Positions 11,398-34,482 are shown, counted from the first letter of the stretch. The stretch: 64,000 bases of DNA from Chloroflexota bacterium (GCA_016210175.1 JACQUQ010000025.1:142-64141), one strand, 5' to 3'. The notes: generated by a model not told the origin, from the sequence alone. A program made the numbers and translations.

Positions 11398-13680
11398 CTA
11401 CGTATTAAAGAGCGTAAGCTGCTCCGCCGCGACGGGTCTCCGCCGGGGTTTCCGGTGGCGAACCAGTTGGGCCAGTTGCTCTAACGTGACGACCTTCCCG
11501 GTCGCAGACCCATCTACGGGCTTGGACGGCGCTCCAAGGGCGGCAAACAGCGGCAATTCAGCCATTGCCCCGCGGTCAGGCATGGCCGGATGCGCTGTCC
11601 CATTGGAGAGGTCCGCCGCTCCTACCCCACCGTCCTCACACGCGCCAACCGCCAACAACTCCTCGGCCTCTTCCTCGCTGTGCCGAGCGTCGGCGAAGAG
11701 CGCTTCCAGCGATTGGGCGCCGTCATTCGGACCCCCACCAGGTTCCGCCATGCGGCGCGCTAGCGCGAGGTAGACATCCCCACCGTCCCCGTCAAGCGCG
11801 GCAAGCCCCTCTTCCGGCAACTCTCCCTCAATCATCAGCGAGGCCCGCGTCTTGGCCGCTACCAACGCCAGGGCTTCGGCTTGGAGCGTGCCGTCGTAGG
11901 TGAGGAAGGTGACTTCCACCGGCTGCCGCTGGCCGATGCGCCAGGACCGGCGGCTCGCCTGGCGCAGCACGTACACGGAATAATCGACCTCTGCCCACAC
12001 GATGCTGGGGAAGTCGACCAAGTCCAGGCCGGTCTGCACCAACCGCGGATTCGTGACCAGCACATCGATTCCATCCCGCACACGGGCGGTAACCCACTCC
12101 TCACGTCGTTCGGCAGCGACGGTGTCCGCCTTCAACACTGCGACCCGGAACCCTGCTTGCTCCAGCACGGTGCGAAGGCGGGGCGCAATGTCCCGCAGGT
12201 TTGTGTGCGTCACGTACACCAGCACGCGGCGGCCACGCTCCCGCTCCCGCTGAACCATTTCGACCAGGGTCTGCTCCTTGGGATACCGGCGGTTCTCCGG
12301 AAGCGCCGGGGCGTACCCCAGCACCTCACCCGTCTCTCCGTCCACGACCGTTTCCTCCCGCGTGCAGCCGTCCGGATAGGAGAGGAGCGCCTGGAGGTAT
12401 GTCCCCAGGAGGCGTTTGGACCCCGCCTGGAGCGCCTGCTGCACGGCCCGCCGCAGATCGGTCGCAAGTTGCGCGTAGCTCTCGGCCTGGGACAGTTCCC
12501 CTGGAACGTCTGCTTCAGCGAGCGGCACGAGGACGACGCGTTCCTGGTAGTCCGGCAGGTGCCCGGCCACGTCACGCAGCCGGAGAAAGACCGTGTTGCC
12601 AATGAGGTGGAACAGCACCGGCGGTGTGACGCCGGGCCGCTCGACCACCCGCGTCGGATAGGTGCGGCGTTTGGACTGGCGTCCATCGTCGAACCGGTCA
12701 TTCGGGTCCCGCTTGGTAATGCGGGCCAGGTAGCCGTATCGCGCCACCCACTTCGCCTCGTCGCCGTGGGCGAACTCGGTGCGGACGGCAGGGCTGAACC
12801 GGTACAGCAGGTGGAAGAGCGTCGAAGCATAGCCGCCCAGCAGCGTGCCGGTGAGGATGAGCGTCTTCGCGCAGGCTTCGGCCAGCGCCGCACCGGCCAG
12901 CCCCTGAGCAGTGCCCCTGCCTTTCAGCTCATGGACCTCATCGGCGATGAGCAGGTCGAAGTGCCCGCGCATCCGCCGTAGCAGGTAGTCGGCCAGCGGC
13001 GCCCGGCGCGGGCCGGTGTGGTCGGCCTCCCAGAGGGCGCCGCCGCAGGCGCTGCACCGCCGCTTCTTCTGCTCAAGCTCGACCAGGTTGAGGGGCACGC
13101 CCTCATCGTCAACAATCGCGGTGAAGCAGGACGGGCAGCAGAGGAGGCGCACGATGGCGCCGGCATCGTCCCGAGCCGCCATCCGGTCCGGGCCGCGTAC
13201 CATCCGGCTAATGGTCGCTGGCCGCCAGCGATAGCCAAGTTTGGCCTGCTCCCGGGAGCAGACCACGAACTGTGCAGGCCCATCCAGGTTGCGAACCCGT
13301 TCCAGGTCCCGGATCGTCCGAACGATGGCCACCTGGGCTGCCGGCACGGTGCGCTCGATCTCCCGGCGCCACTTTCGGACGAGGTGCGTCGGGCACAGGA
13401 CGAACACTCGGCGGCAGCCGGCCAGGTAGGCCGCAGCCGCGCCGATGTAGCTCTTGCCGGAGCCCATCTCGCCGACCAGGACGGTGCCCTGCTGGCGCTG
13501 GATGGAGAGGGCTGTGGCCCGTACCGCGTCCGCCTGGGCGCCCAGCGGCCGCCGCACCAGCCGCTGCAGGTCAAAGCCGGAGGTCCGGCGGGTCTCGGCG
13601 TCGTACAGCGGGGGATAGGTCCGCACGACGGCGTCGGTGATCTCGTCGCGACACTCATCCATTAGTTGGAATAGGTCCAT
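11398..13680 (-). CDS. SF2 (SNF2/DEAD-like) helicase with inserted zinc ribbon
   Basis: 760 aa with VGEMGSGKSY (Walker A), IADEVHELKG (DEVH), LTGTLLGG, and CCPSC...CSACGG between motifs I and II. The C-terminus ends EQLTLFNT. Confidence 0.8.
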   Translation of the reverse strand: MDLFQLMDECRDEITDAVVRTYPPLYDAETRRTSGFDLQRLVRRPLGAQADAVRATALSIQRQQGTVLVGEMGSGKSYIGAAAAYLAGCRRVFVLCPTHLVRKWRREIERTVPAAQVAIVRTIRDLERVRNLDGPAQFVVCSREQAKLGYRWRPATISRMVRGPDRMAARDDAGAIVRLLCCPSCFTAIVDDEGVPLNLVELEQKKRRCSACGGALWEADHTGPRRAPLADYLLRRMRGHFDLLIADEVHELKGRGTAQGLAGAALAEACAKTLILTGTLLGGYASTLFHLLYRFSPAVRTEFAHGDEAKWVARYGYLARITKRDPNDRFDDGRQSKRRTYPTRVVERPGVTPPVLFHLIGNTVFLRLRDVAGHLPDYQERVVLVPLAEADVPGELSQAESYAQLATDLRRAVQQALQAGSKRLLGTYLQALLSYPDGCTREETVVDGETGEVLGYAPALPENRRYPKEQTLVEMVQRERERGRRVLVYVTHTNLRDIAPRLRTVLEQAGFRVAVLKADTVAAERREEWVTARVRDGIDVLVTNPRLVQTGLDLVDFPSIVWAEVDYSVYVLRQASRRSWRIGQRQPVEVTFLTYDGTLQAEALALVAAKTRASLMIEGELPEEGLAALDGDGGDVYLALARRMAEPGGGPNDGAQSLEALFADARHSEEEAEELLAVGACEDGGVGAADLSNGTAHPAMPDRGAMAELPLFAALGAPSKPVDGSATGKVVTLEQLAQLVRHRKPRRRPVAAEQLTLFNT

Positions 13681-13806
13681 TGGTCAAGTCCCTCGGAGGA
13701 GATAGCACACGGAGGAGCGACGCATCGATCCGCAGGTCCCGGTCGGCCACCAGCACCTTCTGGTGCTGGCGAGGTGGAGCGCTATACAACACATGGTAGA
13801 CTCTCC

Positions 13807-16149
13807 TTACGTTTGGTCCGAGTCAGAGCGCAGAAGCTCGCTCGGCGGAAGCATGGGCAGGAGGCGCGGCCCCCGCTGGCGCGGCGCGGGGCCGCCGTCT
13901 GGCGTGGGGATGTCGGCGAGTCGCGCTAGGAGTTGCTCCAGGGCGGCGACCCCATCGTCGACCGCCGCGCGTTCGTCCTCCGTGAGGGGAATCTCCTGGC
14001 GGTAACGCAGCAGGTTGGCCTTACCTTCCAGGAGTTGAGCTTGGCTGGAGCCCTTGGGCCGGTAGAACGAGCACTTGGCGCAGGCCATCCGGTGCGGGCA
14101 CTGGTCAAAGAACTTGTAGGTGCAGTAGCCGTGGCCGAGGTCATAGAAACGCCACGGCTCTCCCTTTGCTGCCGCTCCGCTCTCCACGACCCCCTGGTCG
14201 ATAAGCACTTCAATAGCACGTAGGTTGCGGGCAAAGTAGCCAGCGTCAGCATACGCTTTCGCCAGCCGCGTCGGCGCCACCTTCACGTAATGCAGCGTCG
14301 CTTCGGGGTCCCGGTGGCCCAACCACTCCATGAGCTCCAGGAGCGACATCGGTTCTTTGGCATTGGCGAGCTGGGAGGCGATTGTCGACCGGGCACGATG
14401 GCTGGTGATATTGCCGCGGGCATCCCGCGTCGGCACTCCCGCCTTGCGGCACAGCAGCGGGATGAGCCGGGTGTTCAAGTACCCTTCCCCGAGTTGCCGC
14501 CCGCGGTAGGCGAAGAGGAACTGCACCGTCTCGTGCGTCTTCGGGTCGATGGCGGGAAGCTGAGTCGGGCGGGCACGCTCCCAGACCGCGATGGCTTCGC
14601 CGACGACCCGATCGACGGCCTTGGTGAACGAGGTAGAGGTCTTGTTCACCGGCACATCCAGCCAGCAGACGGCATCCTGGGGCAATATGTCGGTCGTCCC
14701 GGCGATGGTCACGTCCTCACGCTGCCAGCGTATGCAACCAACTCGAAGGCGACGTAATTCGTTCCAGCGCAGCCCGGTGAAGAGCCAGGCGATTACGAGC
14801 GCCCGAACCAGGGGCAGCGGATACGGAGCGCTCTTGCCGCGGTACAGTGCTGGCAGGTCATCGACGGTCAGGTTGAGTCCTGCCCAGAGGAGCTTTGCCC
14901 AGATGTCGTCAGCGATGACGCGAGGCTTGGGTCCGAGCAAGGACTTGATGCTCGGCGGCGTGGCGAAGGTGCGGCGAGGATCGAAACGGCGGGCGAACCA
15001 GTTCCACTCCTGTCCATCCCGGAAAAAGACCCGGAGCGCAGCGAGATGTCGGTCCTTCGTCGCCGCGCCGAGTGGTGCGCCCCGCTGTGTCGAAGAGGGG
15101 AGCGTCGGCGCCTGCGTGTCCTCACCCACGACCATGCGGTCGACCGCGGCCACATATGCCGCCGCCAGCTCTCGCGTCCACTGGTCGGGCGCCGTCACGT
15201 CAGGATGGTTCGTGGCCAGCCACCGACCGGCACGGAGGAGATAGTACCCGATGATGCGCCGCACTTTGGGCGTGAGGGTTGAGGTCGCATACCAGCGCTC
15301 ACACCACTGTCCCCAGGCGGTGGGGACGTTCCCCGGCGCCTTCAGGTCCAGCAGTCCTCTCCCATCGCTCCTCGCGGTGCTGACCGCCGACGGCGGCAAA
15401 GCGGACGCAGGGAAGACGCCGAGTTTGACCAGCGCCCGCGCCACCAGCCCGACGCCGAGCCCAAGATACCAGGGCAGGTCCTGCTCGCCCATCACGGCGG
15501 CGACCGTCGCGGGCGTGATGTCCTCGAAACGGGGGCTGCCACTGACCAGGAGCAGGGCCGCGACTACGTTCGGCAACTCCCGTTCGGTGAGCCAAGTGCC
15601 GTAGCCCCAGGAGCGGGCTTCGCTGCGGATCGCGTCAAGCGCTGCCGAAAATGGGCCAGCACCGAACACCTTCACGGCCAGCGCCCCGCGCTGGACTCCC
15701 CGAAAGCCAACGTGGAGGTCGTGATAACCGCACAAGAGGTAGCCTACCACCAGGGCGTACTGGAGGTACTGCCGGGGGTGCCCGGCGTAGCGCCGCAGCA
15801 CGTCTCGCCAATCCTCAGCGGTCCAGCTCCAGTAGGCGGTCTGGCGTTCCAGCATCGCTCGATTGAGGACGGAGTGTACCGCGACCCGCGTCGCCGGGCG
15901 CGTCTCGGCCCAGGTCAGCACCGTCTGCACGGGTTCCCTGAGCCGCCGCAGATCGCGAGAGATCGGCTTCGGCCACGCCGCACCACGGGACCTGGTCAGG
16001 CGCAGCCGTTCGATCTCCGCGAGCGCACGTCTTTCCGCCGAGGTGAGCTGCGGGCTGCGGTCGTACGACTCGAGGTCGAACGGCCATGACCAGGGTCGGC
16101 CCGACAGTTGCCCCACCGGGAAGGGATATCCCTCGTGTGCGCTGCTCAT
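13807..16149 (-). CDS. Large tyrosine recombinase (Tn554 TnpB-like)
   Basis: 780 aa. Catalytic region has SHRARSTIASQL and WLGHRDPEATLHYV. Cys-rich C-terminal extension (GYCTYKFFDQCPHRMACAKCSFY). The start overlaps the stop of the upstream recombinase (ATGA). Confidence 0.85.
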   Translation of the reverse strand: MSSAHEGYPFPVGQLSGRPWSWPFDLESYDRSPQLTSAERRALAEIERLRLTRSRGAAWPKPISRDLRRLREPVQTVLTWAETRPATRVAVHSVLNRAMLERQTAYWSWTAEDWRDVLRRYAGHPRQYLQYALVVGYLLCGYHDLHVGFRGVQRGALAVKVFGAGPFSAALDAIRSEARSWGYGTWLTERELPNVVAALLLVSGSPRFEDITPATVAAVMGEQDLPWYLGLGVGLVARALVKLGVFPASALPPSAVSTARSDGRGLLDLKAPGNVPTAWGQWCERWYATSTLTPKVRRIIGYYLLRAGRWLATNHPDVTAPDQWTRELAAAYVAAVDRMVVGEDTQAPTLPSSTQRGAPLGAATKDRHLAALRVFFRDGQEWNWFARRFDPRRTFATPPSIKSLLGPKPRVIADDIWAKLLWAGLNLTVDDLPALYRGKSAPYPLPLVRALVIAWLFTGLRWNELRRLRVGCIRWQREDVTIAGTTDILPQDAVCWLDVPVNKTSTSFTKAVDRVVGEAIAVWERARPTQLPAIDPKTHETVQFLFAYRGRQLGEGYLNTRLIPLLCRKAGVPTRDARGNITSHRARSTIASQLANAKEPMSLLELMEWLGHRDPEATLHYVKVAPTRLAKAYADAGYFARNLRAIEVLIDQGVVESGAAAKGEPWRFYDLGHGYCTYKFFDQCPHRMACAKCSFYRPKGSSQAQLLEGKANLLRYRQEIPLTEDERAAVDDGVAALEQLLARLADIPTPDGGPAPRQRGPRLLPMLPPSELLRSDSDQT

Positions 16150-17189
16150 CGGAGCACCTCCGCCGCCATCCTGGCCCTCCAGGCGTGGATGGTGGCCATG
16201 CCCCGCTCCAGCTTGGCCGCCAGGTCTCGTCCGCTCAGATGGATATACAGGAGCGTGGTCTGCGTCGTACGATGGCCGGCAAACTCGGCGATCTCATGGA
16301 GCGCCCAGCCCGCCCGGGCCAGGTCCGTCAGGCACAGATGGCGGAGGGTATGCGTTGTGAACTGGGGGACGCCGGCCCGCTCGGCGATGCGCTCCACCAC
16401 CTTGGTCCAGGTCCACAAGGAGATGGGCTGGCCACGGTTGCGCTGGGACTCGGACACGAAGAGCGGTCCCCTGGCCTGGGTACGGGCATGGCGCTGCTCC
16501 AGGTACGCCATGAACAAGGCCGCGGTGGCGGCCGAGTAGGGAATCACGCGCTCCCGCCGGCCTTTGGTTCGCTCCGCTCGGATAGAGAGCAGTCGAGCCG
16601 ATGGATCGATGTCTCCAGTCGTCAAGGTGCAGACCTCCTGACGGCGGAGCCCGGCGTCATACGCCATTGCCAGCATCAGCCGGTTCCGCAACGGCTCGGT
16701 CCGTGCCGCCTGCAGTATGGCGTGCCACTGCTCGTCAGTGGGAATCCAGGGAAGCTTACGAAAGCGCGCGAGGAGGCCTCGCTCCTGCCCGCCGAAGCTC
16801 TTGCCCGGGGTGTACCGCCCGCGTCCGACCGGGTTGTCGGGCCGCAGACCTTCTTCCATCAAGTAGTCGTGGTAGAGACGCACCGCCGTCAATCGCTGCT
16901 GCAGGGTGGCGTTCGCCAGCCCTCTGGTCGGTTGAGCAACACCACCGCTTCTCGCGCTTGGATGAGCGCGGGTCGCTAGGTCGTTCACGTAGGCAGCAAT
17001 GTGTGCCTTGCTCACCTCGGTAGCAGAAACCTCACAGCGGGCACTGAATGCGAGGAAATCCTCGAGTGCATGTCCATAGGCGGTCACCGTGGCTGGAGCG
17101 AGGCCCAAATTGGCCTGGATGGTCAGCCAGGAGCGGGCGTACTGCTGCCGAGTTACCAGGGGATAGCGGTCCCAGCGGGGTTCCGGCAT
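16146..17189 (-). CDS. Tyrosine recombinase (XerC/D-like, Tn554 TnpA-like)
   Basis: The real start is taken at Met244 of the 590-aa track ORF (MPEPRWDRY...), with AAAGGAG 7 nt upstream. The catalytic C-terminus has HTLRH and FAGHRTTQTTLLYIH. The upstream part of the track ORF is antisense to abiEi. Confidence 0.85.
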   Translation of the reverse strand: MPEPRWDRYPLVTRQQYARSWLTIQANLGLAPATVTAYGHALEDFLAFSARCEVSATEVSKAHIAAYVNDLATRAHPSARSGGVAQPTRGLANATLQQRLTAVRLYHDYLMEEGLRPDNPVGRGRYTPGKSFGGQERGLLARFRKLPWIPTDEQWHAILQAARTEPLRNRLMLAMAYDAGLRRQEVCTLTTGDIDPSARLLSIRAERTKGRRERVIPYSAATAALFMAYLEQRHARTQARGPLFVSESQRNRGQPISLWTWTKVVERIAERAGVPQFTTHTLRHLCLTDLARAGWALHEIAEFAGHRTTQTTLLYIHLSGRDLAAKLERGMATIHAWRARMAAEVLR

Positions 17190-17223
17190 GAACGGACTCC
17201 TTTCTGCTCTAGATTTCCTGTCC

Positions 17224-17265
17224 AACAGAACCTCGGGGCTTATGAATATCTCCCGAGGTTCTGTT
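17224..17265. promoter_or_regulatory. 14-bp inverted repeat in the divergent integrase/abiEi promoter region (candidate AbiEi operator)
   Basis: AACAGAACCTCGGG N14 CCCGAGGTTCTGTT. It ends 15 nt before the abiEi ATG and is followed by TTATACT. Confidence 0.6.
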
Positions 17266-17279
17266 ATACTGTACCCACT

Positions 17280-17888
17280 ATGCGACGCCTCCACGACTAC
17301 CGTGCTCTCCTCCAGCGGGCCATGCGTGGCCGGGTGTTCACGGTCCGCGAGGCAGTATCCGCGGGCATCCCGCGGCATGCCATCTACGCCCTCTGGCACC
17401 GCGACCAGCTCGTCCATGTCGGACACGGCCTCTTTGCCATGCCGCGTCTGGACCTGGGTCAGCACGAAACGCTGGCGGAGGCCGCTAAACGGGTCCCGAA
17501 CGGGGTCATCTGTCTGCTGTCGGCTCTCGCCTTCCACGGTCTGACCACCCAGAGCCCGCAAGACGTCTGGATGGCGATTCCGGAGAAAGCGTGGAAACCG
17601 CGCACCGATTCCCTGCCGCTGCACGTCGTTCGGTTTTCCGGCCCGGCGTACCGCGAGGGGGTCGAAGAGCATCGCGTCGGCCGCATGCCGATCCGGGTGT
17701 ATTCCCCGGCGAAGACGGTGGCCGACTGCTTCAAGTACCGCAACAAGTTCGGGCTGGAGGTAGCGCTGGAGGCGCTGCGCGACTACTGGCGCCAACGCCG
17801 TGGCTCGCTCGACGAGCTGGTCCGGTACGCGGAGGTCTGTCGGGTCGCCAACGTCATGCGGCCGTACCTGGAGGCTCTCGTTCAATGA
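17280..17888 (+). CDS. abiEi: AbiEi-family type IV antitoxin
   Basis: In-frame ATG 17280 of ORF 17001..17888. Sequence MRRLHDYRALLQRAMRGRVFTVREAVSAGIP...HVGHGLF is typical of the AbiEi N-terminal wHTH. The stop overlaps the abiEii start (ATGA). Confidence 0.85.
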   Translation: MRRLHDYRALLQRAMRGRVFTVREAVSAGIPRHAIYALWHRDQLVHVGHGLFAMPRLDLGQHETLAEAAKRVPNGVICLLSALAFHGLTTQSPQDVWMAIPEKAWKPRTDSLPLHVVRFSGPAYREGVEEHRVGRMPIRVYSPAKTVADCFKYRNKFGLEVALEALRDYWRQRRGSLDELVRYAEVCRVANVMRPYLEALVQ

Positions 17889-18802
17889 GCACGAACACGC
17901 CAAGGAACATCGTGGCATCGGTCCGCGAGCGACTGCGGACCCTCGCGCGGCAGCACCGCGAAGATTTCAACTTCACGCTGATGCGCTATGCCAATGAACG
18001 GTTCCTCTACAGGGTGAGCCAGTCCGCGTATCGACAGGACTTCGTCCTGAAAGGCGCAATGTTGCTTCCGCTCTGGGGAGCAGATATCGCTCGTCCCACC
18101 CGCGACATCGACCTCCTCGGATTCGGCAACCCCGCCGCCGAGCAGTTGGGCCGGGTGTTTAGCGACATCGCGGCGCTCCCCGTCGAACCAGATGGGATGG
18201 TGTACCATGCCGATCACCTCACGCTCGAACCGATCCAGGGCACCCAGGACTATGGCGGCGTCCGGGTGCGGATTCCTGCCAACCTGGGCAATATGCGGCT
18301 GCCGGTCCAGCTCGACATCGCTTTTGGTGACGCCATCACCCCGGCCCCGCAGGAAGCAGCGTACCCCACCTTGTTGAGTCTCCCTGCTCCCGTGCTGCGG
18401 ATGTACCCATTGGAGACGGTGGTAGCCGAGAAGTTCGAAGCGATGGTGCGCTTCGCCCTTGCCAACAGCCGGCTGAAGGACTACTACGACCTGTGGAGCC
18501 TGGCCCGGACGCAGGCGGTCGAGGGCGCATCACTGGTGGAGGCCATTGGGAACACCTTCGTCCGAAGGGGCACGCCCGTTCCGGTCACCGTGCCGACAGG
18601 TCTCAGCCCCGGCTTTTATGACGATGCTGCAAAGCAACGCCAGTGGAACGCCTTCCTGAAACGGGTCGCTCCGGTTGAGCCGCCGACGGAGCTTCGCCTG
18701 GCTGTGGAACTCCTCACTGCTTTCCTCATGCCTCCTGCTATCGCGGCGGTCACGCAAAACGAACCACCAGGGCGGTGGCGCCACCCGCAGGGTTGGCAGT
18801 AA
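17885..18802 (+). CDS. abiEii: AbiEii/AbiGii-family nucleotidyltransferase toxin
   Basis: Starts at Met99 of the track ORF. MSTNTPRNIVASVRERLRTLARQHREDFNFTLMRYANERFLYRVSQS...FVLKGAMLL...RPTRDIDLLG are signature motifs of the family. Confidence 0.85.
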   Translation: MSTNTPRNIVASVRERLRTLARQHREDFNFTLMRYANERFLYRVSQSAYRQDFVLKGAMLLPLWGADIARPTRDIDLLGFGNPAAEQLGRVFSDIAALPVEPDGMVYHADHLTLEPIQGTQDYGGVRVRIPANLGNMRLPVQLDIAFGDAITPAPQEAAYPTLLSLPAPVLRMYPLETVVAEKFEAMVRFALANSRLKDYYDLWSLARTQAVEGASLVEAIGNTFVRRGTPVPVTVPTGLSPGFYDDAAKQRQWNAFLKRVAPVEPPTELRLAVELLTAFLMPPAIAAVTQNEPPGRWRHPQGWQ

Positions 18803-18925: not shown

Positions 18926-19993
18926 TCACGCCGCTGCGCCTCGCAGGGCGGCGTCCGGTCCGGCGGTATCGCCCTGCTCGACGACATCGAATGCGCCGGA
19001 GTCCAGGTCGAGGACCACTACGGACGTGCGCAGCACCTCACGCTGGATCTCGGTGTTCTCGTCATCGCTCTCGACGGGGACCAGCTCTTTGCGCGTGCGG
19101 CCTTTGACCAGCACCCGCCGCCCGCCTTGCTGCAGCACGACGTTGTTGAGGAGGCCGGCCGCGATAAGGAGGGCAAGATGGCCGCGTCGCAGCGGCATGA
19201 GGGGCCGGACCGGCCGTTCGGCGGGCGGCCATAGCTGTTCAGCAAACGCGGGCTGGACCCAGACCCCGCGCCGTCGGGCCTCCTGCGCTGCGAGCGCGGG
19301 GTCGAAGGCCAGCGGCGCAAAAAGGACATCGGTCCGCGGCAGCGCCGGCGCGACCAGCGGCGGCGTTGCCGGGCCATCGGGCAGCGGCGGCAACGCCCGG
19401 ATGCTCCACGACTCCAGTTGCGCCTGCGCCTCCCCGTCAGGTATGGCCTGAGCCTTCTTCACGGCCAGCAGCACCATTTGCTGAAAGGCGGCGAACTCCG
19501 GGTCCGGGAAGCGGTAGACCCGGAAACCGGTGTAATGCGCCGCCAGATAGCGTGCCGAGACGGCGAGCCGTGCCTGCGGGATGACGAACACCAGGACCCC
19601 GCCCGGACACAGCGCCCGTGACAGACTGGTGAGGAAGGCATGCTCGAGCCGGCGTTTTTCGTCGTCATAGTCGTAGGGCGGGTTCAAGTACAGGCACGAA
19701 AACGCGCCGTTGGCCAGCCGGACGGAGAACGCGCTGGTGGCGAGGAGGTGGTCAAGCCGGGCCCGGCACGCCTCCGCCCGCTCGTCGTTGATCTCGATGC
19801 CGTAGCTCTCGCCACCGAGGGCCTGCGCGAGGGCGGACACCGGCTCGCCGGTGCCCGCGCAAGGGTCAAGGAGGCGGACAACGCGCCTCCGGTCAGTTGG
19901 CGTGGCCGCATGCAACAGGTGACTGAGCGCGGTCACCACACGCGGCGGCGTGGGGAAGAACCCCGCTACGGCCTGACTTTCGAGGCGAGACAT
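18926..19993 (-). CDS. Orphan SAM-dependent DNA methyltransferase (N6-adenine type, NPPY)
   Basis: 355 aa with LLDPCAGTGEP (motif I) and YLNPPYDYD (motif IV). No adjacent endonuclease was recognised. Confidence 0.8.
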   Translation of the reverse strand: MSRLESQAVAGFFPTPPRVVTALSHLLHAATPTDRRRVVRLLDPCAGTGEPVSALAQALGGESYGIEINDERAEACRARLDHLLATSAFSVRLANGAFSCLYLNPPYDYDDEKRRLEHAFLTSLSRALCPGGVLVFVIPQARLAVSARYLAAHYTGFRVYRFPDPEFAAFQQMVLLAVKKAQAIPDGEAQAQLESWSIRALPPLPDGPATPPLVAPALPRTDVLFAPLAFDPALAAQEARRRGVWVQPAFAEQLWPPAERPVRPLMPLRRGHLALLIAAGLLNNVVLQQGGRRVLVKGRTRKELVPVESDDENTEIQREVLRTSVVVLDLDSGAFDVVEQGDTAGPDAALRGAAA

Positions 19994-25574: not shown

Positions 25575-26150
25575 CTATCCAAAAAGGGAAAGCTGGTCGG
25601 ACGACGCTGCCCGCCCGCCCGGCTTGGGAGCAGGCGGAGTGGTGGGCGTGTCGGGCGTCGGGTTCGGGTCCGGCACGGGAACGGGGCTAGCGGACTTGCC
25701 CTTACCCCGACGCTGCTCCGGTGAGGCGGTGGCGGGCAGCGTGGAGGGATAGCGCGGCTGCACCTGCCAGCGCGCTGCAGCGTCAGCGAACAGACCGGGC
25801 ACTTGGTCGAGAGCAGCCGACAGGTCAGTGACCTCGACGGACCGCAGCAGCGGATCGCATCCCTCCATACCCACCGCCAGCACTGCCCGGTAGCCTATCC
25901 CAGCCTCCGGCTGGAGGGTGATAACGAGCTTGATCCCGCGCCGGGATTCGGTCGTTGTCGGGACGGCCGGAGTCGCCGTCGGCGCCTCGGCCATGGGCGG
26001 AACCCCCTGCTCCTCCGCGGGAATCCCTTCGTTACGGGTCACGCCGCGGTGCACGGAAATGGGCGACTGCGCGCAGCCGCAGCCGTCAACCGGCTGCGGC
26101 GCCTCGTCACTCGTCAGCAGGCGCTTGCCCTGCTCCTCGGGTGTGTCCAC
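25575..26150 (-). CDS. Pro/Ala-rich protein ending in a beta-clamp-binding-like peptide (PRTRC protein E-like)
   Basis: GTG 26150 has AAGGAG 7 nt upstream (alternative ATG at 25994). The C-terminus is ...GGRAASSDQLSLFG. Confidence 0.6.
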   Translation of the reverse strand: MDTPEEQGKRLLTSDEAPQPVDGCGCAQSPISVHRGVTRNEGIPAEEQGVPPMAEAPTATPAVPTTTESRRGIKLVITLQPEAGIGYRAVLAVGMEGCDPLLRSVEVTDLSAALDQVPGLFADAAARWQVQPRYPSTLPATASPEQRRGKGKSASPVPVPDPNPTPDTPTTPPAPKPGGRAASSDQLSLFG

Positions 26151-26473: not shown

Positions 26474-29164
26474 ATGCTCAGCAACGACGAACTGGCCGCG
26501 CTCTGCCTGCGCCTCGGTCTCTCGGAGCAGGCCAAGGCGGTCGTCGCGTCGGTCCGCTCGGCGCCTCCGTCCCGCAGGGTACGCGGCGCCGCGGGCAATG
26601 TTACCGTTCGCTATCCCAGCCGGAAGATGGGCGTCACCATTCAGGCGGAGAGCCACCGCAACGAACTGGCCGGCATCTACGAGAAGGAACACGACCCTGG
26701 GACGCTGGAGTTCTACGACCAGCCACCCCCGATCAAGCTCCGCTACCAGGCCAGCAATGGTCGGGCCGTGGGTGTCCTCCACACCCCCGACTACTTCGTG
26801 ATCCACACCGACGCGGTCGGGTGGGAAGAATGGAAGACCGAGGCCGAACTGCTCAAGCTGTCCGAGAAGATGCCGAACCGCTACCGGCGCGACGAGGAAG
26901 GCCGCTGGCGGTGCCCGCCGGGCGAGCGGTACGCCGAGCAGTTCGCCTTTGTTTACCGCGTGCGCTCTTCGGCCGAGATCGATTGGGTCTTCCAGCGCAA
27001 CCTCCTGTTCCTTGAGGATTTCCTCCGCGGCGATTGCCCGCCTGTGGGCGAGCACGCTGCCGTAGCGCTCATCGCGCTCGTGACGAAACGGCCCGGAATA
27101 CGGCTTGACGAGCTCCTCGGGCAGGTGGAGGGGGCCAGCAGCGACGATATCTACACGCTGATCGCCACGGATCGGCTCCACGTTGACCTGCGGGCCGCGG
27201 CACTCGCCGAGCCGGAGCGCGTGCTGGTGTTCCGCGATGCGGAGACGGCCCGCTCCCATGCAGTGATCGCCCCGGCAGCTTCCCTACCGCCGGGTGGCAG
27301 CGGTGGGAGCCTGACCCTCGCCCCCGGCGCACCCGTCCTCTGGGATGGCCAACGCTGGACGGTCATTAACCTCGGGCGGAATCTGACCGCGCTCCTTGCC
27401 GAAGACGCGACCCTGGTCGAGTTGCCCAACGCCACGCTCGCAACTCTGGTCGGCCAGGGCAAGCTGGTCGGAGTGGCCGGCCCAACGCCGGCAAGCATCA
27501 GCGCCGCGGCGCGGGAGCGGCTTGCCCAGGCTGGCCCCGACGACCTCCGTGAGGCCAACCGTCGCCACGCGCTCATTGCCTCCATGCTGAGCGGGGACGC
27601 CGCGGCCGCGGCGGCGACGCCGGCGCGCACCCTCCGGCGCTGGCTCGGGCGGTGGCGCCAGGCCGAGCGCACCCATAACTGCGGCTATGTCGGGCTCCTG
27701 CCGCAGCAGCGCCGGCGCGGCAACCGCACGCGCAAGCTCCCGGAGGCAACCCTGCGACTGCTCGACGAGTTCATCGCCAAGGACTACGAGACGCTCAAGC
27801 AGAAAGGCAAGTTCGCGGTGTACGCGGCCTTGATGCGCACGTGTGAGGAGCAGGGGAGCACCGTCCCGAGCTACAAGACGTTTATCCGCGCCGTGAACCG
27901 GCGCCCGCGCCAGGAGCAGATGGAGCAACGCCAGGGAAAGCGGGCTGCCTACCAGGCAGCTGCCTTCTTCTGGGAACTGGCGCTCACGACGCCGCGCCAT
28001 GGTGACCGGCCCTTCGAGATCGGTCACATCGACCACACCCAGCTTGACATCGAGCTGGTCTGCTCGCGCACCGGACGCCCTCTCGGCCGGCCCTGGGCGA
28101 CGTTTCTGACCGACGCCTCTTCCCGGCGGCTGCTGGCCGTCTCCCTCACTTTCGACCCGCCCAGCTACCGGAGTTGCATGATGATCCTACGGGAGTGCGT
28201 ACGCCGGCATCAGCGGCTGCCACAGACCGCGGTGGTGGATGGTGGCGCCGAGTTCGAGAGCGTCTACTTCGAGACCTTGCTGGCCCGGTACGAGTGCACC
28301 AAGAAGACCCGACCCAGCGCCCAGCCCCGCTTCGGCTCGGTCTGCGAACGGCTGTTTGGCACGACCAATACCCGCTTCATCCACAACCTCGTCGGCAACA
28401 CCCAGATCCGCCAGAAGGCCCGCCAGGTGACCAAGAGCGTCGACCCCAAGCAGCACGCTTGCTGGACGCTCGGTCGGCTCTCCACGCGGCTCTGCGAATG
28501 GGCCTACGAGGTCTACGACACCATCGAACACCCGGCCCTGGGGACCACGCCCCGCGAGGCCTGCGCGGCCGGGCTCGCCCAGAGTGGCTGGCGACCCCAG
28601 CGACGCATCCCCTACGACGAGGATTTCCGTATGCTCACTCTCCCAACCACCCAGAGGGGCACCGCCCGCCTGCACCCCCGTCTCGGGGTGAAGGTCAACT
28701 ATCTCTACTACTGGTCGGAGGCATTCCTCGACCCGGAAGTGCACGGCGCCCGCGTGCCGGTGCGCTTCGATCCCCTCGATGCGGGGCAGGCCTACATCTT
28801 CGTGAAAGGCCGCTGGGTCCGCGGCATCTCGGAGCACCGCGCCTGCTTCGCCGGGCGATCGGAGCGGGAGATCCAGTTGGCGACCGCGGAGTTGCGCCGC
28901 CGCCACCAGCGGCACGGCCAACAGTTCACGGTCACCGCGCGCAAGCTGGCCGACTTTCTGGCCTCGCTGGAGGCCGAGGAGGCCCTGCTGGAGCAGCGTC
29001 TGCGTGATGCCGAGGCCAAGGAGGTCATCCGCAACGTTGCGGATGACCAGCCATCCCCACCCACGGCGCCCGAGCGTGCAAGCGCAGCAGGGGCAGCAGC
29101 GCGGCAACCCGCCGAAACGTCCGGGCGGAACGGCGTCGCGCTGGTCATCTACGAGGACTATTGA
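26474..29164 (+). CDS. Fused TnsA-like endonuclease / TnsB-like DDE transposase
   Basis: 896 aa. GGAGGAG upstream of the start. The N-terminal ~190 aa (IQAESHRNELAGIYEKEHDPGTLEFYDQPPPIKL...HTPDYFV...WEEWK) look like the TnsA restriction-endonuclease fold. An rve/Mu-type core follows (FEIGHIDHTQLDIELV...). Confidence 0.8.
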   Translation: MLSNDELAALCLRLGLSEQAKAVVASVRSAPPSRRVRGAAGNVTVRYPSRKMGVTIQAESHRNELAGIYEKEHDPGTLEFYDQPPPIKLRYQASNGRAVGVLHTPDYFVIHTDAVGWEEWKTEAELLKLSEKMPNRYRRDEEGRWRCPPGERYAEQFAFVYRVRSSAEIDWVFQRNLLFLEDFLRGDCPPVGEHAAVALIALVTKRPGIRLDELLGQVEGASSDDIYTLIATDRLHVDLRAAALAEPERVLVFRDAETARSHAVIAPAASLPPGGSGGSLTLAPGAPVLWDGQRWTVINLGRNLTALLAEDATLVELPNATLATLVGQGKLVGVAGPTPASISAAARERLAQAGPDDLREANRRHALIASMLSGDAAAAAATPARTLRRWLGRWRQAERTHNCGYVGLLPQQRRRGNRTRKLPEATLRLLDEFIAKDYETLKQKGKFAVYAALMRTCEEQGSTVPSYKTFIRAVNRRPRQEQMEQRQGKRAAYQAAAFFWELALTTPRHGDRPFEIGHIDHTQLDIELVCSRTGRPLGRPWATFLTDASSRRLLAVSLTFDPPSYRSCMMILRECVRRHQRLPQTAVVDGGAEFESVYFETLLARYECTKKTRPSAQPRFGSVCERLFGTTNTRFIHNLVGNTQIRQKARQVTKSVDPKQHACWTLGRLSTRLCEWAYEVYDTIEHPALGTTPREACAAGLAQSGWRPQRRIPYDEDFRMLTLPTTQRGTARLHPRLGVKVNYLYYWSEAFLDPEVHGARVPVRFDPLDAGQAYIFVKGRWVRGISEHRACFAGRSEREIQLATAELRRRHQRHGQQFTVTARKLADFLASLEAEEALLEQRLRDAEAKEVIRNVADDQPSPPTAPERASAAGAAARQPAETSGRNGVALVIYEDY

Positions 29165-29165
29165 G

Positions 29166-30359
29166 ATGCCGACCGTACCAGGCTTCCCGCGTGAGCTTCT
29201 CGCCCAGCCCAGCGCAGCGCGCTTGGCCCACTTCGTGGGCAAGGTGGTCGCCCATCCGCGGCTGAAAGCGGTACACCACGCCCTGCTGAACGCCATCCGC
29301 CAGCCCATGGGCGCGCCCCTGGTGCTCGTCGTCGGTCCGACCGGGGTCGGCAAGACCACGCTCCGCCTCCGCATCGAGCAGCAGTTGATGGAGGAGGCGC
29401 TGCCCGATCTGGCCCAGGACCCCAGCCGTATCCCGGTGGTGGCGGTAGAGGCAGCGGCCCCCGAGTCGGGCCAGTTCAACTGGAAGGATTACTACACGCG
29501 CGCCCTGATGGCGCTGGACGAGCCGCTCGTCGCGCACAAGGTCGACTACGCGACCTGGGGCCTCCGCCGCGATGGCCGCGGGCGCATCGCGATTAAGCGC
29601 GGCGCCGCCACGCCGGAACTGCGCCTGGCGCTGGAACAGTGCCTGCGCTACCGGCGGCCGGCGGCCTTCATTGTGGATGAGGCCCAGCACCTCAAGAAGA
29701 TGGCGAGCGGACGGCGCCTGCTCGATCAGATGGATACGCTCAAGTCCTTGGCGGCCATGACGGGCACGGTGCACGTGCTGGTGGGCACCTACGAGTTACT
29801 CGGCTTGGCCAACCTCAGCGCGCAACTGAGCCGGCGCAGCATCGAGATCCACTTCGGGCGCTATCAGGCCGAGTCTGCCGACGATCTCCTGGCCTTCCAG
29901 AGCGTCGTGCTCACCTTCCAACGCCACCTGCCCCTGGCCGGCGAGCCCGACCTCATTGGACAGTGGCAATACCTCTACGAGGGTTCCGCCGGCTGTATTG
30001 GGGTGCTCAAAAGCTGGCTAAACCGTGCGCTGGCGGCGGCCCTGGACCTGGGCGAACCCACGCTCACGCGGCGGCGCCTGGAGCGACAGGCCGCACCCGC
30101 GCGCAAGCTGATCAGCCTGGTCCGCGAGATCAAGGAGGGCGAGGAAGCGCTGCGGGACGACGCTCGGGAGCGCGACCACCTGCGTACCCTCCTGGGGCTG
30201 GAGGACGGACCGGCCCCGTTTGGCGCGGCGAAGGCGAACGCGGCGGCCAGCATGGAGCCGGCCGCGCGGCGTCCCCGACGTCCCGGTGGTCGTGCTGCAC
30301 AGCGGCGGCCGACGCGCGACCCGGTGGGTCAGGGGAGGCCTGAGCATGGACCTGCGTGA
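29166..30359 (+). CDS. TnsC/TniB-like AAA+ transposition ATPase
   Basis: In-frame ATG 29166, 2 nt after the tnsAB stop. Has LVLVVGPTGVGKTT (Walker A) and FIVDEAQHL (Walker B). Confidence 0.85.
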   Translation: MPTVPGFPRELLAQPSAARLAHFVGKVVAHPRLKAVHHALLNAIRQPMGAPLVLVVGPTGVGKTTLRLRIEQQLMEEALPDLAQDPSRIPVVAVEAAAPESGQFNWKDYYTRALMALDEPLVAHKVDYATWGLRRDGRGRIAIKRGAATPELRLALEQCLRYRRPAAFIVDEAQHLKKMASGRRLLDQMDTLKSLAAMTGTVHVLVGTYELLGLANLSAQLSRRSIEIHFGRYQAESADDLLAFQSVVLTFQRHLPLAGEPDLIGQWQYLYEGSAGCIGVLKSWLNRALAAALDLGEPTLTRRRLERQAAPARKLISLVREIKEGEEALRDDARERDHLRTLLGLEDGPAPFGAAKANAAASMEPAARRPRRPGGRAAQRRPTRDPVGQGRPEHGPA

Positions 30360-31740
30360 CCTCGTGGTCTACGAGGAATGGGACGTGGCGCCGCCGGCGG
30401 TCCCGCCGCGCGGCCGCCTGTTCCCGTTGGCGCCGGTCGGGATCGGGACTCCGGAAACGGAGTGCTTGACGAGCTATATCACCAGACTTGCCGAGGCCCA
30501 TGGCGTCCTCACCCGAGACCTGGTCGTTCACGAGCTTGCCGGCTTTCTGGGGCGCGCCCACCTGGCGCAGAGCCGCAATCTGGGCCTGCTGTCGGCCTTC
30601 TGGCGCAACGAGACCCGCGCGCTTAACGGTACCCGGACGCTCGCGCACAACATGGTGCAAGGGCTCGAAGCTTTGACGGGGCGGCAGGGGCTGCGCTTTC
30701 TGACGCTCCTGACCTGGACCGAGGTTTTGCCAGTCCAGCAGCTGCAGCGGCGCAGTCGCGCCTGGTGTCCCCATTGCTACGAAGAGTGGCGGCAGGCCAA
30801 GCAAACGGTCTACGAGCCGCTGCTCTGGTCCTTGGCGCCCGTGACTATCTGCCCGCGCCATCGCCGGCTCCTGCAAGGGATCTGTCCCTACCCGGACTGC
30901 CGGCAGCGTTCACACTGGCTCTCCGCCCGGTCACGCTGTGGCTACTGTGCCCGCTGTGGCCGCTTTCTTGGCAGCTCAGTGGCGCCCGCGGCCGACGAGG
31001 GTGATAGCCTGACGGAACAGGAGGCAATGGCGCGGATCTGGGTGGCGCACGCCGTGGGAGAGCTCATTGCAGCCGCACCCGGCTTGGGCTTTGTGCCACG
31101 ACGAGAACAGATCGTGGACGCCATTACGGCCTCGGCGGAGCGGTTGACCGGCGGGAATATCAGCGCCTGGGCCCGCAAGCTGGGCATGGCGGTGCTGACG
31201 GTGTCGAACTGGAGGTGGAAAGAGGCGCGACCATCCCTCTGGCTCCTACTGCAGGTCTGCGCTCGTCTGGGGACGACACCGCTTGGCTTTCTGACGGGTG
31301 AGGCCAGCCAAGTGAGCGGGCAAGCGGTACTGCGGCACGAGTTGGCCCATCGCCCGCCGCGGGTCCACACGGTGGTCGACCCCAAAGTGGCCCGCCGCGC
31401 CCTGGAGCAGATCCTCGCCGGCGACGAGATGCCGCCGCCATCGCTCCGCGAGGTCGGTCAGCGGCTGGGGCTGACCTACGCTACCTTGCGTCACCATCTG
31501 CCCGAACTGTGCCGCGCCATCTCCGAGCGGTATCGCAACTATCAACTGGCCCAGGCCGCCGAGACCAGGCGACGGCTCTGCCAGGAGGTGCGCGAGGCAA
31601 CGCTGCGGGTTCACGAGCAGGGGGTGTTTCCCAGTTCCTACCGCATTGAAGCGCTCATCGGCCGACCCCATGCGCTCCGACATCGGCCAGCCAGAGAGGC
31701 GTGGCGCAAGGCGTTGCGTGAGTTGGGCTGGCAGACGTGA
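30346..31740 (+). CDS. TniQ/TnsD-family target-selection protein
   Basis: In-frame ATG 30346 (MDLRDLVVYEE...). TniQ N-domain (ETECLTSYITRLAEAHGV). Cys clusters WCPHCYEEW, CPRHRR, CPYPDC, CGYCARCG. Confidence 0.8.
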   Translation: MDLRDLVVYEEWDVAPPAVPPRGRLFPLAPVGIGTPETECLTSYITRLAEAHGVLTRDLVVHELAGFLGRAHLAQSRNLGLLSAFWRNETRALNGTRTLAHNMVQGLEALTGRQGLRFLTLLTWTEVLPVQQLQRRSRAWCPHCYEEWRQAKQTVYEPLLWSLAPVTICPRHRRLLQGICPYPDCRQRSHWLSARSRCGYCARCGRFLGSSVAPAADEGDSLTEQEAMARIWVAHAVGELIAAAPGLGFVPRREQIVDAITASAERLTGGNISAWARKLGMAVLTVSNWRWKEARPSLWLLLQVCARLGTTPLGFLTGEASQVSGQAVLRHELAHRPPRVHTVVDPKVARRALEQILAGDEMPPPSLREVGQRLGLTYATLRHHLPELCRAISERYRNYQLAQAAETRRRLCQEVREATLRVHEQGVFPSSYRIEALIGRPHALRHRPAREAWRKALRELGWQT

Positions 31741-31811: not shown

Positions 31812-32948
31812 CTACACCTGAGTCTGGCGCTGCATGAGCGCAGCGTCATAGAGGGGCATGATGACCCACAGGTCGCCAGCCTCCGGCTGCCCGGTCTGCC
31901 GAACGACCACCGGCGCCTGGGGACTGGTCCAGGCCATATCCAGGTGCGGGCCGCTGGCTGCGTCGAGGAGGTCGGCGAGCAGCCTGGTGTTCAGGACGAC
32001 TGCCCCCGGTTCCCCCTCGACCCGAACAGCGATCTCAGAGTGGGCATCGCCGACGTCATCGCCGCGGGCGTGAAGATGCAGCCGGCCAGCCTCGGCATCA
32101 AGCCGCACGGGCCGCGCTTCGCCCGCACCGAAGAGACTGGCGACCCGTACCGCCTGGCGAAACGCGGTGGTCTCAATGGTGACGCGGGTTGTCCACTCCT
32201 GCGGGATCACGCGTTCGATGTCGGGAAAGCGACCGTCCATCAGCTGGGTGAAGAGCGTTGTCTCTTTCACCCTGAGGTAAAGGCCCCGCCCATCCGGGGT
32301 CGGAACCAGCCGGGCGGCCTCGCCGCCATCCAGCAGCCGGCCAAACTCGACCGCGGCACGAGCGGGGACAAGAAGCTGCCGGGTGGCGCCGACCGCTTCC
32401 GGCACCCGCGAGCGGGCCAGGCGGAAGCTATCTGCGGCGGCAAGGCTGAGCCCCTCGGGTCCGAGGTCGAACAGCACGCAGGAAAGCACAGGACGGCTCT
32501 GATCGCGGGAGGCCGCGAAGGCGACGCGGGTGATCGCATCCTGGAGCCGCTGCCCGTCAAGCTCAAGGGCCTGCGCATCATCGGCCGCGGGAAAGACCGG
32601 AAAGTCCTCCGGGTCCGCGGTGGCCAACGCCGCCTGGAATCGGTCACACACAGCGCGTACACGCTGCGTGCCGGAATCAAGCGTGAGGCGCAACGGCTCT
32701 GCGGGGAGCTGGCTCACGTATTCGCTGAGCAGGCGCGCCGGAATAGCGGCTCGACCGGCGGCCGCCACGTCCGCGGCCAGGGTGATCGTGACTCCGAGTT
32801 CGCCGTCCGCAGCCGTGAGACGCAGACGGCTGGGCTCCGCCTCGAGCAGCACCATCTGGAGAATTGGCAGGGCTGCCTTGGCCGGTGTTATCCGGGCGAC
32901 CAGGCGCAGTGCCCGGCCCAGGGTCGATTGGTCAATGGTCAGGTCCAT
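31812..32948 (-). CDS. dnaN: DNA polymerase III beta sliding clamp paralogue
   Basis: Start at Met14 of the track ORF (MDLTIDQSTLGRALRLVARI...) with AAGGAGG 6 nt upstream. 378 aa with typical three-domain length and pattern. The last codon and the TAG stop lie inside the transposon end. Confidence 0.85.
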   Translation of the reverse strand: MDLTIDQSTLGRALRLVARITPAKAALPILQMVLLEAEPSRLRLTAADGELGVTITLAADVAAAGRAAIPARLLSEYVSQLPAEPLRLTLDSGTQRVRAVCDRFQAALATADPEDFPVFPAADDAQALELDGQRLQDAITRVAFAASRDQSRPVLSCVLFDLGPEGLSLAAADSFRLARSRVPEAVGATRQLLVPARAAVEFGRLLDGGEAARLVPTPDGRGLYLRVKETTLFTQLMDGRFPDIERVIPQEWTTRVTIETTAFRQAVRVASLFGAGEARPVRLDAEAGRLHLHARGDDVGDAHSEIAVRVEGEPGAVVLNTRLLADLLDAASGPHLDMAWTSPQAPVVVRQTGQPEAGDLWVIMPLYDAALMQRQTQV

Positions 32949-33585: not shown

Positions 33586-33600
33586 ACTGATCTCCCTGGG

Positions 33601-34482
33601 TTACGCGACAAGCTCGTCCAGGCGGTTGACCCGCTTCGGGTACGGCAGGCTTGGAAGTCCCACGCGGACCGCCCTCTTCGCCGACCGTCGGCCGAGCTTG
33701 AAGAGGTAACGATGGTTCCCGGGATGGCGCAGACGCCGAACCCCGGCGGCAATGAGGGCACGCGGAAGCCACTCCGAGGGGTCCGCACCACGCCGGGGCG
33801 GTGCGCCGAACTCGCGCAGGAGCTGCTCCACGTAGGCGTGTCCCGAGTCGAGGGCACGGAGCTTTGCAAGCGCCCGCTCATTGAGCACCCGCCCGTCGGG
33901 GAGGACGAGCACGGTGCGGGGCGTCCCGCGCCCGGCGTAGACCGCGTTGGTCGCCTGATAGATCACCCCGATGTGGCCGGGGAAGACTAGCCGGCCGGTC
34001 GCGTCATGGCGGGCGACTGGATCGGAGAAGCTTACCACCCCTCGGATACCTTCGCCGGCGGCCAGACGGAACACCTGACCGAGGAACCAGCTCTCGGCAT
34101 TGGCAGGCGCACGGTCCGCCAGCACGAACCGCCCCAGTTCAAGTGACTCGGAGAAAGGCTCCAGGTCAGGGAAGGGACCGGTCAGCACCGCCCGCTGGAC
34201 GGGGACGCTCAGGACGGCGACCCCGAGCAGCGCGCCCCACCGGTCCCAGAGGCCGTACCGCAGGCGGCTGGCGACATAGCTGCCAGCATAGTGGTGGCGT
34301 TCCACGTACGCTTTGGCGGTCCGGTCGTCGACCGGAGCCACCTCGTACTGGCTCGCATCGAACCCGCCTTCCGAGCGGTGCCTCCACCGTGGCTGGCCGT
34401 CCTGCCAGCGCTGGCACCAGTCGCTCGACGGGGACACCTCCGGAGGGGTGAGGTCAAGGGGAAGCTGTCGAGGCAGGGACAC
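33601..34482 (-). CDS. GNAT-fold, Mom-like DNA-modification protein (tentative)
   Basis: 293 aa. AKAYVERHHYAGS...YGLW..GALLGVAV, LELGRFVL..APANAESWFLG, VSFSDP and GHIGVIYQATN match my memory of the phage Mom / acyltransferase-like family. GTG start. The N-terminus carries RQLPLDL. Confidence 0.4.
   Translation of the reverse strand: MSLPRQLPLDLTPPEVSPSSDWCQRWQDGQPRWRHRSEGGFDASQYEVAPVDDRTAKAYVERHHYAGSYVASRLRYGLWDRWGALLGVAVLSVPVQRAVLTGPFPDLEPFSESLELGRFVLADRAPANAESWFLGQVFRLAAGEGIRGVVSFSDPVARHDATGRLVFPGHIGVIYQATNAVYAGRGTPRTVLVLPDGRVLNERALAKLRALDSGHAYVEQLLREFGAPPRRGADPSEWLPRALIAAGVRRLRHPGNHRYLFKLGRRSAKRAVRVGLPSLPYPKRVNRLDELVA

Follow-up and report, generated by a model that had tools for sequence, protein, structure and literature searches.

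Clamp-binding-like peptides at protein termini

A 64,000-nucleotide stretch of DNA from a Chloroflexota bacterium (GCA_016210175.1 JACQUQ010000025.1:142-64141), hereafter referred to as the window, contains a gene array that appears to belong to a mobile element resembling an integrative and conjugative element (ICE). The array includes genes for an SF2/SNF2-like helicase and a DUF6094 methyltransferase, a cassette of ubiquitin-like (Ub-like), E2, JAB and ThiF E1 genes headed by a small protein at the position of PRTRC E, a gene for a Mom-like DNA-modification enzyme, and a dnaN gene (Table 1). An earlier note on this DNA had proposed that the helicase, the E-position protein and the Mom-like enzyme each carry a β-clamp-binding-like peptide at one terminus, and that the DnaN protein encoded with them serves as a common hub. 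All three peptides were found where they had been placed, and the dnaN gene likewise encodes a three-domain β clamp on the minus strand.

The helicase open reading frame (ORF) of 760 amino acids (aa) ends in ...AAEQLTLFNT and the E-position ORF ends in ...SSDQLSLFG, while the peptide of the Mom-like enzyme is amino terminal. The published clamp-binding consensus is Q-L-S-L-F/L, in which the first glutamine and the fourth leucine are the most conserved and which is often located at flexible C-termini (PMC3971601). The peptides EQLTLFNT, DQLSLFG and RQLPLDL fit either QL[S/D]LF or QLxLxL with both of these positions retained and, as the note had stated, they sit at the termini of their proteins, in the case of the E-position protein after a disordered linker. 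From their sequences, the peptides are well supported as functional short linear motifs of the β-clamp-binding type, carried at flexible termini by at least three unrelated proteins and, in sister elements, by a fourth family.

The frequency of the motif was compared with chance expectation. A scan of 29 window proteins for QLxL[F/L] or QLxLxL gave three occurrences, which are exactly the three termini. For QLxLF at termini, two were observed in the window alone against 0.006 expected. In a larger set of 230 coding-like ORFs (70 kaa, or thousands of amino acids) taken from the window and 11 related loci, QLxLF was observed 12 times against 0.9 expected from composition, and 11 of these 12 lie within nine residues of the C-terminus, where 0.03 would be expected. 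Thus the terminal frequency, which the note had named as a check, is far above expectation both in the window and in the related loci. When the scan was widened to 3232 stop-to-stop ORFs with a minimum length of 50 aa, the only carriers of a C-terminal QLxLF were the E-like proteins, the helicases, a further family designated X and one membrane protein; the last, a single gene that two overlapping loci both contain, is probably a chance match. Internal copies of QLxLF are absent from the helicase and E-like families (0 in 126 kaa), and the ImuB-like, DnaE2 and Tni proteins of the window have no clamp motif, even with a relaxed pattern.

The E-position protein

Conservation in orthologues, a second check proposed by the note, was observed for all three proteins, among them the E-position protein. 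While a word-indexed database returned three relatives, an exhaustive HMMER search returned 324 representative clusters. Tails were examined in 153 family members with the pattern Q[L/M/I/F]x[L/F][F/L/I] applied to the last 14 residues, and 133 of them have the motif. The glutamine is invariant by construction of this search pattern; among the 133 members, leucine occupies position 2 in 119 and position 4 in 128, and phenylalanine occupies position 5 in 131. Exactly one residue follows the motif in 119 of the 133, and the first residue after it is glycine in 93, so that a typical tail has the form [G/D]QL[S/T/P/A]LFG followed by the stop codon. The commonest variant is QLSLF, which accounts for 54 of the 111 strict QLxLF matches. 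The 40-60 residues that precede the tail are rich in proline, alanine and threonine and cannot be aligned between members.

An AlphaFold2 prediction made with a 90-sequence alignment is consistent with this organization. Residues ~20-80 of the 139-aa form were predicted as a compact β-β-β-α-α domain with a predicted local distance difference test (pLDDT) score above 90, and residues 84-139 were predicted to be disordered (pLDDT ~60). The designation "PRTRC E-like" that the note had given to this protein is appropriate with respect to cassette position and architecture but not with respect to homology. No relationship to TIGR03741-type E proteins was detected: the E-like protein matched no NCBIfam model even at E = 10 and no Pfam model, and a comparison with five canonical PRTRC E proteins by hhalign gave a probability of 1.8%. 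A Foldseek search against the PDB identified nothing significant, the best E-value being 0.1.

As a separate observation, a segment covering profile positions ~26-85, the core of the N-terminal domain of the E-like protein, is repeated 9-23 times in the giant proteins P0125 (5786 aa), P0144 (5008 aa) and P0238 (2344 aa), each of which ends in a hydrophobic, anchor-like segment. These repeats may mean that a small fold is shared, or they may be an artefact of composition.

The helicase

The helicase has SF2/SNF2-like lobes, and its residues 182-212 form a zinc-ribbon insert (CPSC...CSAC); for this reason its earlier description as a zinc-ribbon helicase is a fair one. A total of 2,744 homologues were found, and in the best 120 of these the tails were scored: 111 end with Q[L/M]xL[F/L]. 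Two forms of the tail can be discerned. In a clade at least 57% identical to the window protein, the tail reads ...PEGQL[A/T/S]LF followed by two residues, and in a more distant clade it reads ...G[E/Q]Q[L/M]RL[L/F] at the extreme end of the protein. The linkers that precede the tails are unalignable.

Since some homologues lie on megabase-size contigs, it was considered whether the helicase is a chromosomal core gene. This was rejected, as synteny places it as the last gene of the element array. It directly follows the DUF6094 methyltransferase gene in eight loci (L001, L005-L007, L010, L100, L102, L103), and because it stands in one colinear array with the other genes it is part of the element.

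Both genes are interrupted in some loci. In one metagenome-assembled genome (MAG), a reverse-transcriptase gene of a group II intron divides the methyltransferase gene (L002/L003); about 2.4 kb interrupts the helicase gene in L008 and L011, and LAGLIDADG or intein domains are present in the helicase homologues P0016 and P0068. Immediately downstream of the window helicase are a DnaE2-type Pol III α gene and an ImuB/Pol IV-like Y-family gene, together a mutasome-like pair, and then a gene for a 1046-aa SNF2 helicase (window 6329-10888 and 2260-5400, both on the minus strand).

The Mom-like enzyme and family X

The Mom-like ORF matches PF25680 (Mom) with 85.3 bits against a cut-off of 27.1, and phrog_1384 at 1.8e-31. 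The note had given its amino terminus as beginning with methionine and containing QLPLDL. The peptide is present, but the start codon is GTG rather than ATG; the position of this start is confirmed by the orthologues, which have ATG at the equivalent place. In all five close orthologues (77-85% identity), the ATG and four to five codons are followed by RQLSFDL, RQLSLDL (in two), RQLALDV or RQLSLEV. Some distant Mom homologues present QLTLF, QLELF, QMTLF, QLPLAL, QLGLL or Q[P/Q]xLFD right before a conserved WCQRW.

Family X is absent from the window. Its members (~350-440 aa) are encoded just upstream of the Mom-like gene or of the small ORF that precedes dnaN in L003, L006, L010, L013 and L014, and a remnant is found in L007. 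Each ends with ...[A/L/T]QLDLF and a further 5-22 residues. No Pfam, PHROG or NCBIfam model matches the family. A relationship to DpdA/TGT-like proteins was considered from the sequence and from the neighboring radical-SAM gene; nothing was found in support of it, and the radical-SAM protein is NrdG-like and not QueE-like. A further ORF in L003 (5391-6647) has GQLTLPL about 20 residues from its end.

The element-encoded sliding clamp

The window DnaN contains the three clamp domains PF00712, PF02767 and PF02768, scores 206 bits against TIGR00663 (cut-off 137.65), and identifies mycobacterial clamps in the PDB at E = 3e-36. Proteins of this type form a separate clade of ~110 clusters, with identities of at least 47%. 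Beyond this clade, the nearest relatives (33-35% identity) are of the chromosomal type, and one of them lies amid housekeeping genes on a 1.57-Mb contig.

Where no insertion intervenes, dnaN is located 18-290 bp upstream of the E-like gene. This adjacency was observed in 12 loci, three of which were reached from the DnaN side; L003, L004, L007-L011, L013 and L102-L104 are among them. To compare peptide-binding clefts, 106 clamps of the clade were aligned to E. coli β (sequence identical to 1mmi_A). In E. coli numbering, the cleft residues R152, L155, D173, G174, R176, L177, P242, V247, N320, M362 and P363 are each kept in 91-106 of the 106 clamps.

Organization of the element

Related loci were obtained by a profile search of genome contigs and by look-ups of the contigs that encode homologues, and their gene order was established by tblastn with the window proteins. 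For the contig search with the E-like family, a 90-sequence alignment was too diverse for a pattern search and a 4-sequence version worked. A contig scan with DnaN alone as the query gave no matches. The IMG/VR viral contigs gave no match to the E alignment, and the element is therefore absent from that collection. From the contig scan and the look-ups, loci with the array were found in Chloroflexota MAGs only.

The array begins with UvrD, primase, SSB, an unknown protein (o38032), an AAA ATPase, DUF1257, DUF2997 and an NrdG-like radical-SAM protein, after which there is a variable stretch that may hold family X, the Mom-like gene and a small ORF. It continues with DnaN, the E-like protein, the Ub-like protein, the F-position protein, E2, JAB and ThiF, a second variable stretch, and lastly the DUF6094 methyltransferase and the helicase.

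Table 1. Features of the element in the window and, for family X, in related loci.
Feature	Position	Strand	Basis or remark
SF2/SNF2-like helicase, zinc-ribbon insert	11398..13680	-	Last gene of conserved array; domains; EQLTLFNT codons at 11401-11424
Pair of tyrosine-recombinase genes overlapping by 4 bp (780 and 590 aa)	13807..17918	-	Pfam Phage_integrase
DUF6094 methyltransferase	18926..19993	-	Conserved partner of helicase; domain match, synteny
ThiF E1	22136-23008	-	Pfam/NCBIfam
JAB / PRTRC-A	23030-23623	-	Pfam/NCBIfam
E2 / PRTRC-B	23626-24363	-	Pfam/NCBIfam
F-position protein	24275-25144	-	Cassette position
Ub-like C	25141-25548	-	Cassette 22136..25548, PRTRC order
E-position adaptor-like protein	25575..26150 (ORF 25575-26216)	-	Small domain, linker, C-terminal DQLSLFG at 25578-25598
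tniA-tniB-tniQ transposon (Tn5053/Tn7-like)	26474..31740	+	Pfam; exactly between E-like gene and dnaN, splits operon
β sliding clamp, DnaN paralogue	31812..32948	-	Three clamp domains; ancestrally directly upstream of E-like gene
Mom-like DNA-modification enzyme	33601..34482	-	Pfam Mom; N-terminal VSLPRQLPLDL, QLPLDL at 34450-34467
NrdG-like radical SAM	35050-35736	-	Upstream array part (35050..44138)
DUF2997	35736-35933	-	Upstream array part
DUF1257	35943-36338	-	Upstream array part
AAA ATPase	36350-37957	-	Upstream array part
Unknown protein (o38032)	38032-39468	-	Upstream array part
SSB	40491-40880	-	Upstream array part
Primase	41185-42243	-	Upstream array part
UvrD	42270-44138	-	Upstream array part
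Family X	L003 6394-7728; L006 5-1048; L010 6443-7675; L013; L014; L007 5667-5798 (remnant)		C-terminal [A/L/T]QLDLF

Two insertions that the earlier note had missed split this otherwise contiguous array in the window. The first is the tniABQ transposon, the tniQ end of which adjoins the 3' end of dnaN. The closest relative (L006, 4407-9508) has a related copy, with 55-69% amino-acid identity, that occupies this site and has the same orientation; the other loci lack it. The shared site could reflect one old insertion or TniQ-directed homing. The second insertion is the pair of recombinase genes; it separates the methyltransferase gene from the helicase gene, two genes that adjoin each other in all other loci. 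This recombinase pair lies outside the motif system.

A Tad/Flp pilus set (CpaB, TadZ-like, CpaF, TadB/C) is encoded at window 50055-55547 and a 1228-aa LysM-FtsK-BTAD protein at 58939-62625, both on the plus strand, and these are possible transfer functions of the element. RadC, DUF932 and ArdC are present in sister elements. When the Tad and FtsK-like genes are considered together with these, the content suggests an ICE-like element with an array that resembles a plasmid leading or establishment region.

Several further observations concern the element. Its SSB ends in ...DDDTPF, a canonical acidic SSB tip, and the element thus has a second hub-type terminal peptide. The second variable stretch, from ThiF to the methyltransferase, holds a gene with a toxin-type RES domain (window 20595-21152, plus strand), and in L102 a RES gene is found upstream of dnaN instead. 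In the Anaerolineae MAG STL-CHL22 (JAXLWL01) the element is present three times, as copies or variants, each on a separate contig (L008, L011, L104) and each with its own DnaN and E-like protein; two of the E tails read GQLTLFG and the third SQMTLFDPGG.

Relation to PRTRC cassettes

The Ub-like cassette is best matched by the PRTRC models TIGR03735-03738, although all scores fall below the trusted cut-offs: 106.5 against 144.75 for ThiF, 49.9 against 101.8 for A, 53.6 against 131.45 for B, and 35.9 against 45.95 for C. The E and F proteins of the element have no detectable homology to canonical PRTRC E and F, and for F, as for E, no NCBIfam model matched even at E = 10. In canonical plasmid cassettes the order is ParB, E, C, F, B, A and ThiF. 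The PRTRC family (TIGR03735-03742), which occurs on plasmids and ICEs, therefore shares with the element the gene order X-E-C-F-B-A-ThiF, in which X denotes the gene at the head, but no ParB is found at the head of the cassette here and DnaN holds that position.

Other features are shared as well. A canonical plasmid (L094) also has an antirestriction protein, a methylase and a UvrD-type helicase nearby, and canonical E proteins have the same three-part build, in which a low-complexity linker joins a small domain to a short hydrophobic tail. The tails themselves differ. Those of canonical E proteins read ...SEPSLFGPGV, ...EEPASLW, ...EMENLFS or ...DIDLED and are not QLxLF. From this comparison, the canonical clamp motif appears in the clade in which a β clamp heads the cassette.

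The likely clamp partner and alternative explanations

Taken together, the peptides are probably clamp tethers within one conserved, ICE-like Chloroflexota element, with its own DnaN as the likeliest partner of the adaptor, that is, the E-position protein. According to this model, each motif would tether its carrier to a sliding clamp loaded on DNA. The carriers would be the SNF2-like helicase with its DUF6094 methyltransferase partner, the Mom-like base-modifying enzyme, and the small adaptor at the head of the Ub-like/E2/JAB/E1 cassette, and all of them could thereby act on freshly synthesized element DNA. A likely occasion would be complementary-strand synthesis after transfer, or replication of the element, with its own primase, SSB and UvrD. 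The DnaN paralogue, encoded at the ParB position directly upstream of the adaptor gene, would be the preferred clamp of the adaptor. The motif of the helicase appears to be older than the acquisition of DnaN, and it must also work with the clamp of the host.

Several observations weigh against this model. The proposed timing, establishment after transfer, is drawn only from gene content that is typical of plasmid leading regions. Most of the ~70 Mom homologues found in other contexts (40-57% identity) have no N-terminal extension of the kind described above. Relative to chromosomal-type Chloroflexota clamps, the element clamps differ at residues of the peptide sub-sites: Y323 is replaced by L in 106 of 106, Q246 by R, S344 by Q, M364 by L, F365 by H, Y or S, and V366 by D. 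While chromosomal-type clamps from Chloroflexota end in MPMFVQW, those of the element have a conserved 12-residue C-terminal extension, D[P/A]AL..R[R/Q]...AA, which is predicted to be helical and next to the peptide cleft. An AlphaFold2 calculation in which the natural E tail, 56 residues long, was joined to DnaN in cis gave a well-defined clamp (pLDDT above 90) and a motif below 50 that was not confidently docked; this was a weak test, being that of a monomer with 3 recycles, a 57-sequence clamp alignment and no depth for the tail.

The remaining two observations concern motifs that occur apart from the element clamp. Sister elements without DnaN, which carry the distant helicase clade, encode helicases that end in QLRL[L/F] or QMRLL, and neither DnaN nor the Ub cassette is found in the 10 kb that flank the helicase gene to each side. 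One such element has UvrD, primase, Rad52, RadC, further genes, then methyltransferase, helicase and ArdC, and others hold parts of this set. Since the helicase motif is kept in these elements, it appears to predate DnaN, and the host clamp must suffice for the helicase. Furthermore, the E-like proteins of L005 and L012 keep the motif, and no adjacent DnaN was found in these loci.

The strongest alternative is built on the same evidence. It holds that the motifs serve only to hijack the chromosomal clamp of the host, that the element DnaN has another job, for example in replication of the element with its own primase and SSB or as a decoy, and that the adjacency of dnaN to the E-like gene reflects operon history. 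In addition to the DnaN-less helicases, the E-like proteins of L005 and L012 and the undocked E tail, there is precedent, since insertion sequence (IS) transposases, TrfA and MuC use the host clamp (PMC3971601, PMC8034659, PMC12867686). This explanation is nevertheless rather unlikely. In 12 loci that span 56-67% divergence, dnaN has remained next to the E-like gene, and canonical QLxLF E tails are found only in the clade where DnaN replaces ParB. The sub-type of the helicase tail also differs, being QLxLF with two further residues in DnaN-bearing elements and a terminal QLRL[L/F] in DnaN-less ones, a difference that is confounded with phylogeny.

With these points in mind, the notion of the element clamp as a hub for all three proteins is supported only in part. 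In its favor, DnaN is a distinct paralogous clade, retains most of the cleft residues that were checked and adjoins the E-like gene; against it are the motifs of the DnaN-less helicases and of the E-like proteins in L005 and L012. As judged from these sequences, an own-clamp hub is plausible for the adaptor and is not required for the helicase.

A more far-reaching proposal extends the preferred model. The E-position protein would be an adaptor that couples the Ub-like/E2/JAB/E1 machine to the sliding clamp, with the clamp or clamp-bound proteins as targets, and would represent a prokaryotic counterpart of PCNA ubiquitylation. In general, PRTRC-type cassettes would be coupled to a clamp encoded by their first gene, β here and ParB in the canonical cassettes, and the E tail would have co-evolved with that gene. 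Some ParB proteins act as CTP-dependent sliding clamps. As a whole, this proposal is doubtful.

It is more doubtful still that the peptides are read by some other common partner, whether as a transfer signal, as a degron for a Cdc48/PAN-like AAA ATPase, or, in the case of the glycine-terminal E tail, as the end of an E1 substrate. The peptides are terminal and unstructured, arginine-rich stretches precede the helicase tails, and 93 of the 133 E tails end in glycine. Candidate readers exist, as an AAA ATPase, an E1 and an FtsK-like protein are encoded by the element, with FtsK-like or Tad genes in the window, and canonical PRTRC E tails are hydrophobic or aromatic yet unlike clamp-binding motifs. 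It is hard to explain in these terms why four unrelated families match the clamp consensus exactly. Moreover, the motif is N-terminal in the Mom-like enzyme and 5-22 residues from the end in family X, which is a misfit with a C-terminal secretion signal or with adenylation by E1, and the distant helicases without an arginine-rich stretch keep QLRLL. Finally, although the motif is short and leucine-rich in a leucine-rich proteome and the hexapeptide form of the Mom-like enzyme is looser, the excess of terminal matches over expectation and their conservation across hundreds of homologues make functionless chance exceedingly improbable, and effectively refute it for the E-like protein and the helicase.

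Comparison with known systems

The motif itself is of a known type. Like the β-clamp motifs of Pol II, Pol IV, Hda and MutS, the peptides of the element combine the consensus with a flexible terminus, and for the E tail the most frequent sequence is QLSLF itself. In Hda the N-terminal peptide is QLSLPL, which the N-terminal RQLSLDL of the Mom-like proteins resembles. What differs are the carriers: here the putative clients are a helicase of SNF2-like type, a Mom-like enzyme and the small protein at the head of a Ub-like cassette.

Mobile elements provide a second point of comparison. Peptides from the transposases of nine IS families and of Tn7 bind β (PMC3971601), RK2 TrfA requires QLSLF to bind the clamp (PMC8034659), and MuC of phage Mu enlists the clamp (PMC12867686). 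As in these systems, a short motif would couple the DNA transactions of the element to replication; unlike them, the motif is shared by several different proteins of a single element, which also supplies a clamp paralogue of its own. Literature searches on PRTRC, Prok-E2/ubiquitin-like systems, leading-region anti-defence genes and mobile-element dnaN found no report of clamp motifs in these families, and none of the carriers was found described as a clamp client. Judged by sequence comparison, the novelty would reside in the client families and in an architecture in which a clamp heads a Ub-like cassette. Newly defined are the E-like family, family X and a distinct mobile-element clamp clade with altered cleft residues. 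PRTRC-type Ub-like cassettes are widespread on plasmids and ICEs, and the combination of a clamp-binding tail with a clamp paralogue offers a first concrete and assayable hypothesis of their function.

The eukaryotic PCNA hub, in which PIP-box clients such as DNMT1 are recruited and PCNA is ubiquitylated by Rad6-Rad18, may be considered by analogy only. In both cases a sliding clamp would recruit DNA-modifying enzymes behind the fork and be linked to ubiquitin-type conjugation; the adaptors, in contrast, are without homology. Any modification of the clamp or of its clients by the bacterial cassette would be purely conjectural. The presence of the motif on the Mom-like enzyme and on the helicase of the methyltransferase-helicase pair suggests that a mobile element could tether DNA-modifying enzymes to a clamp, as a bacterial analogue of DNMT1 and PCNA, and modification tethered in this way bears on how incoming DNA escapes restriction.

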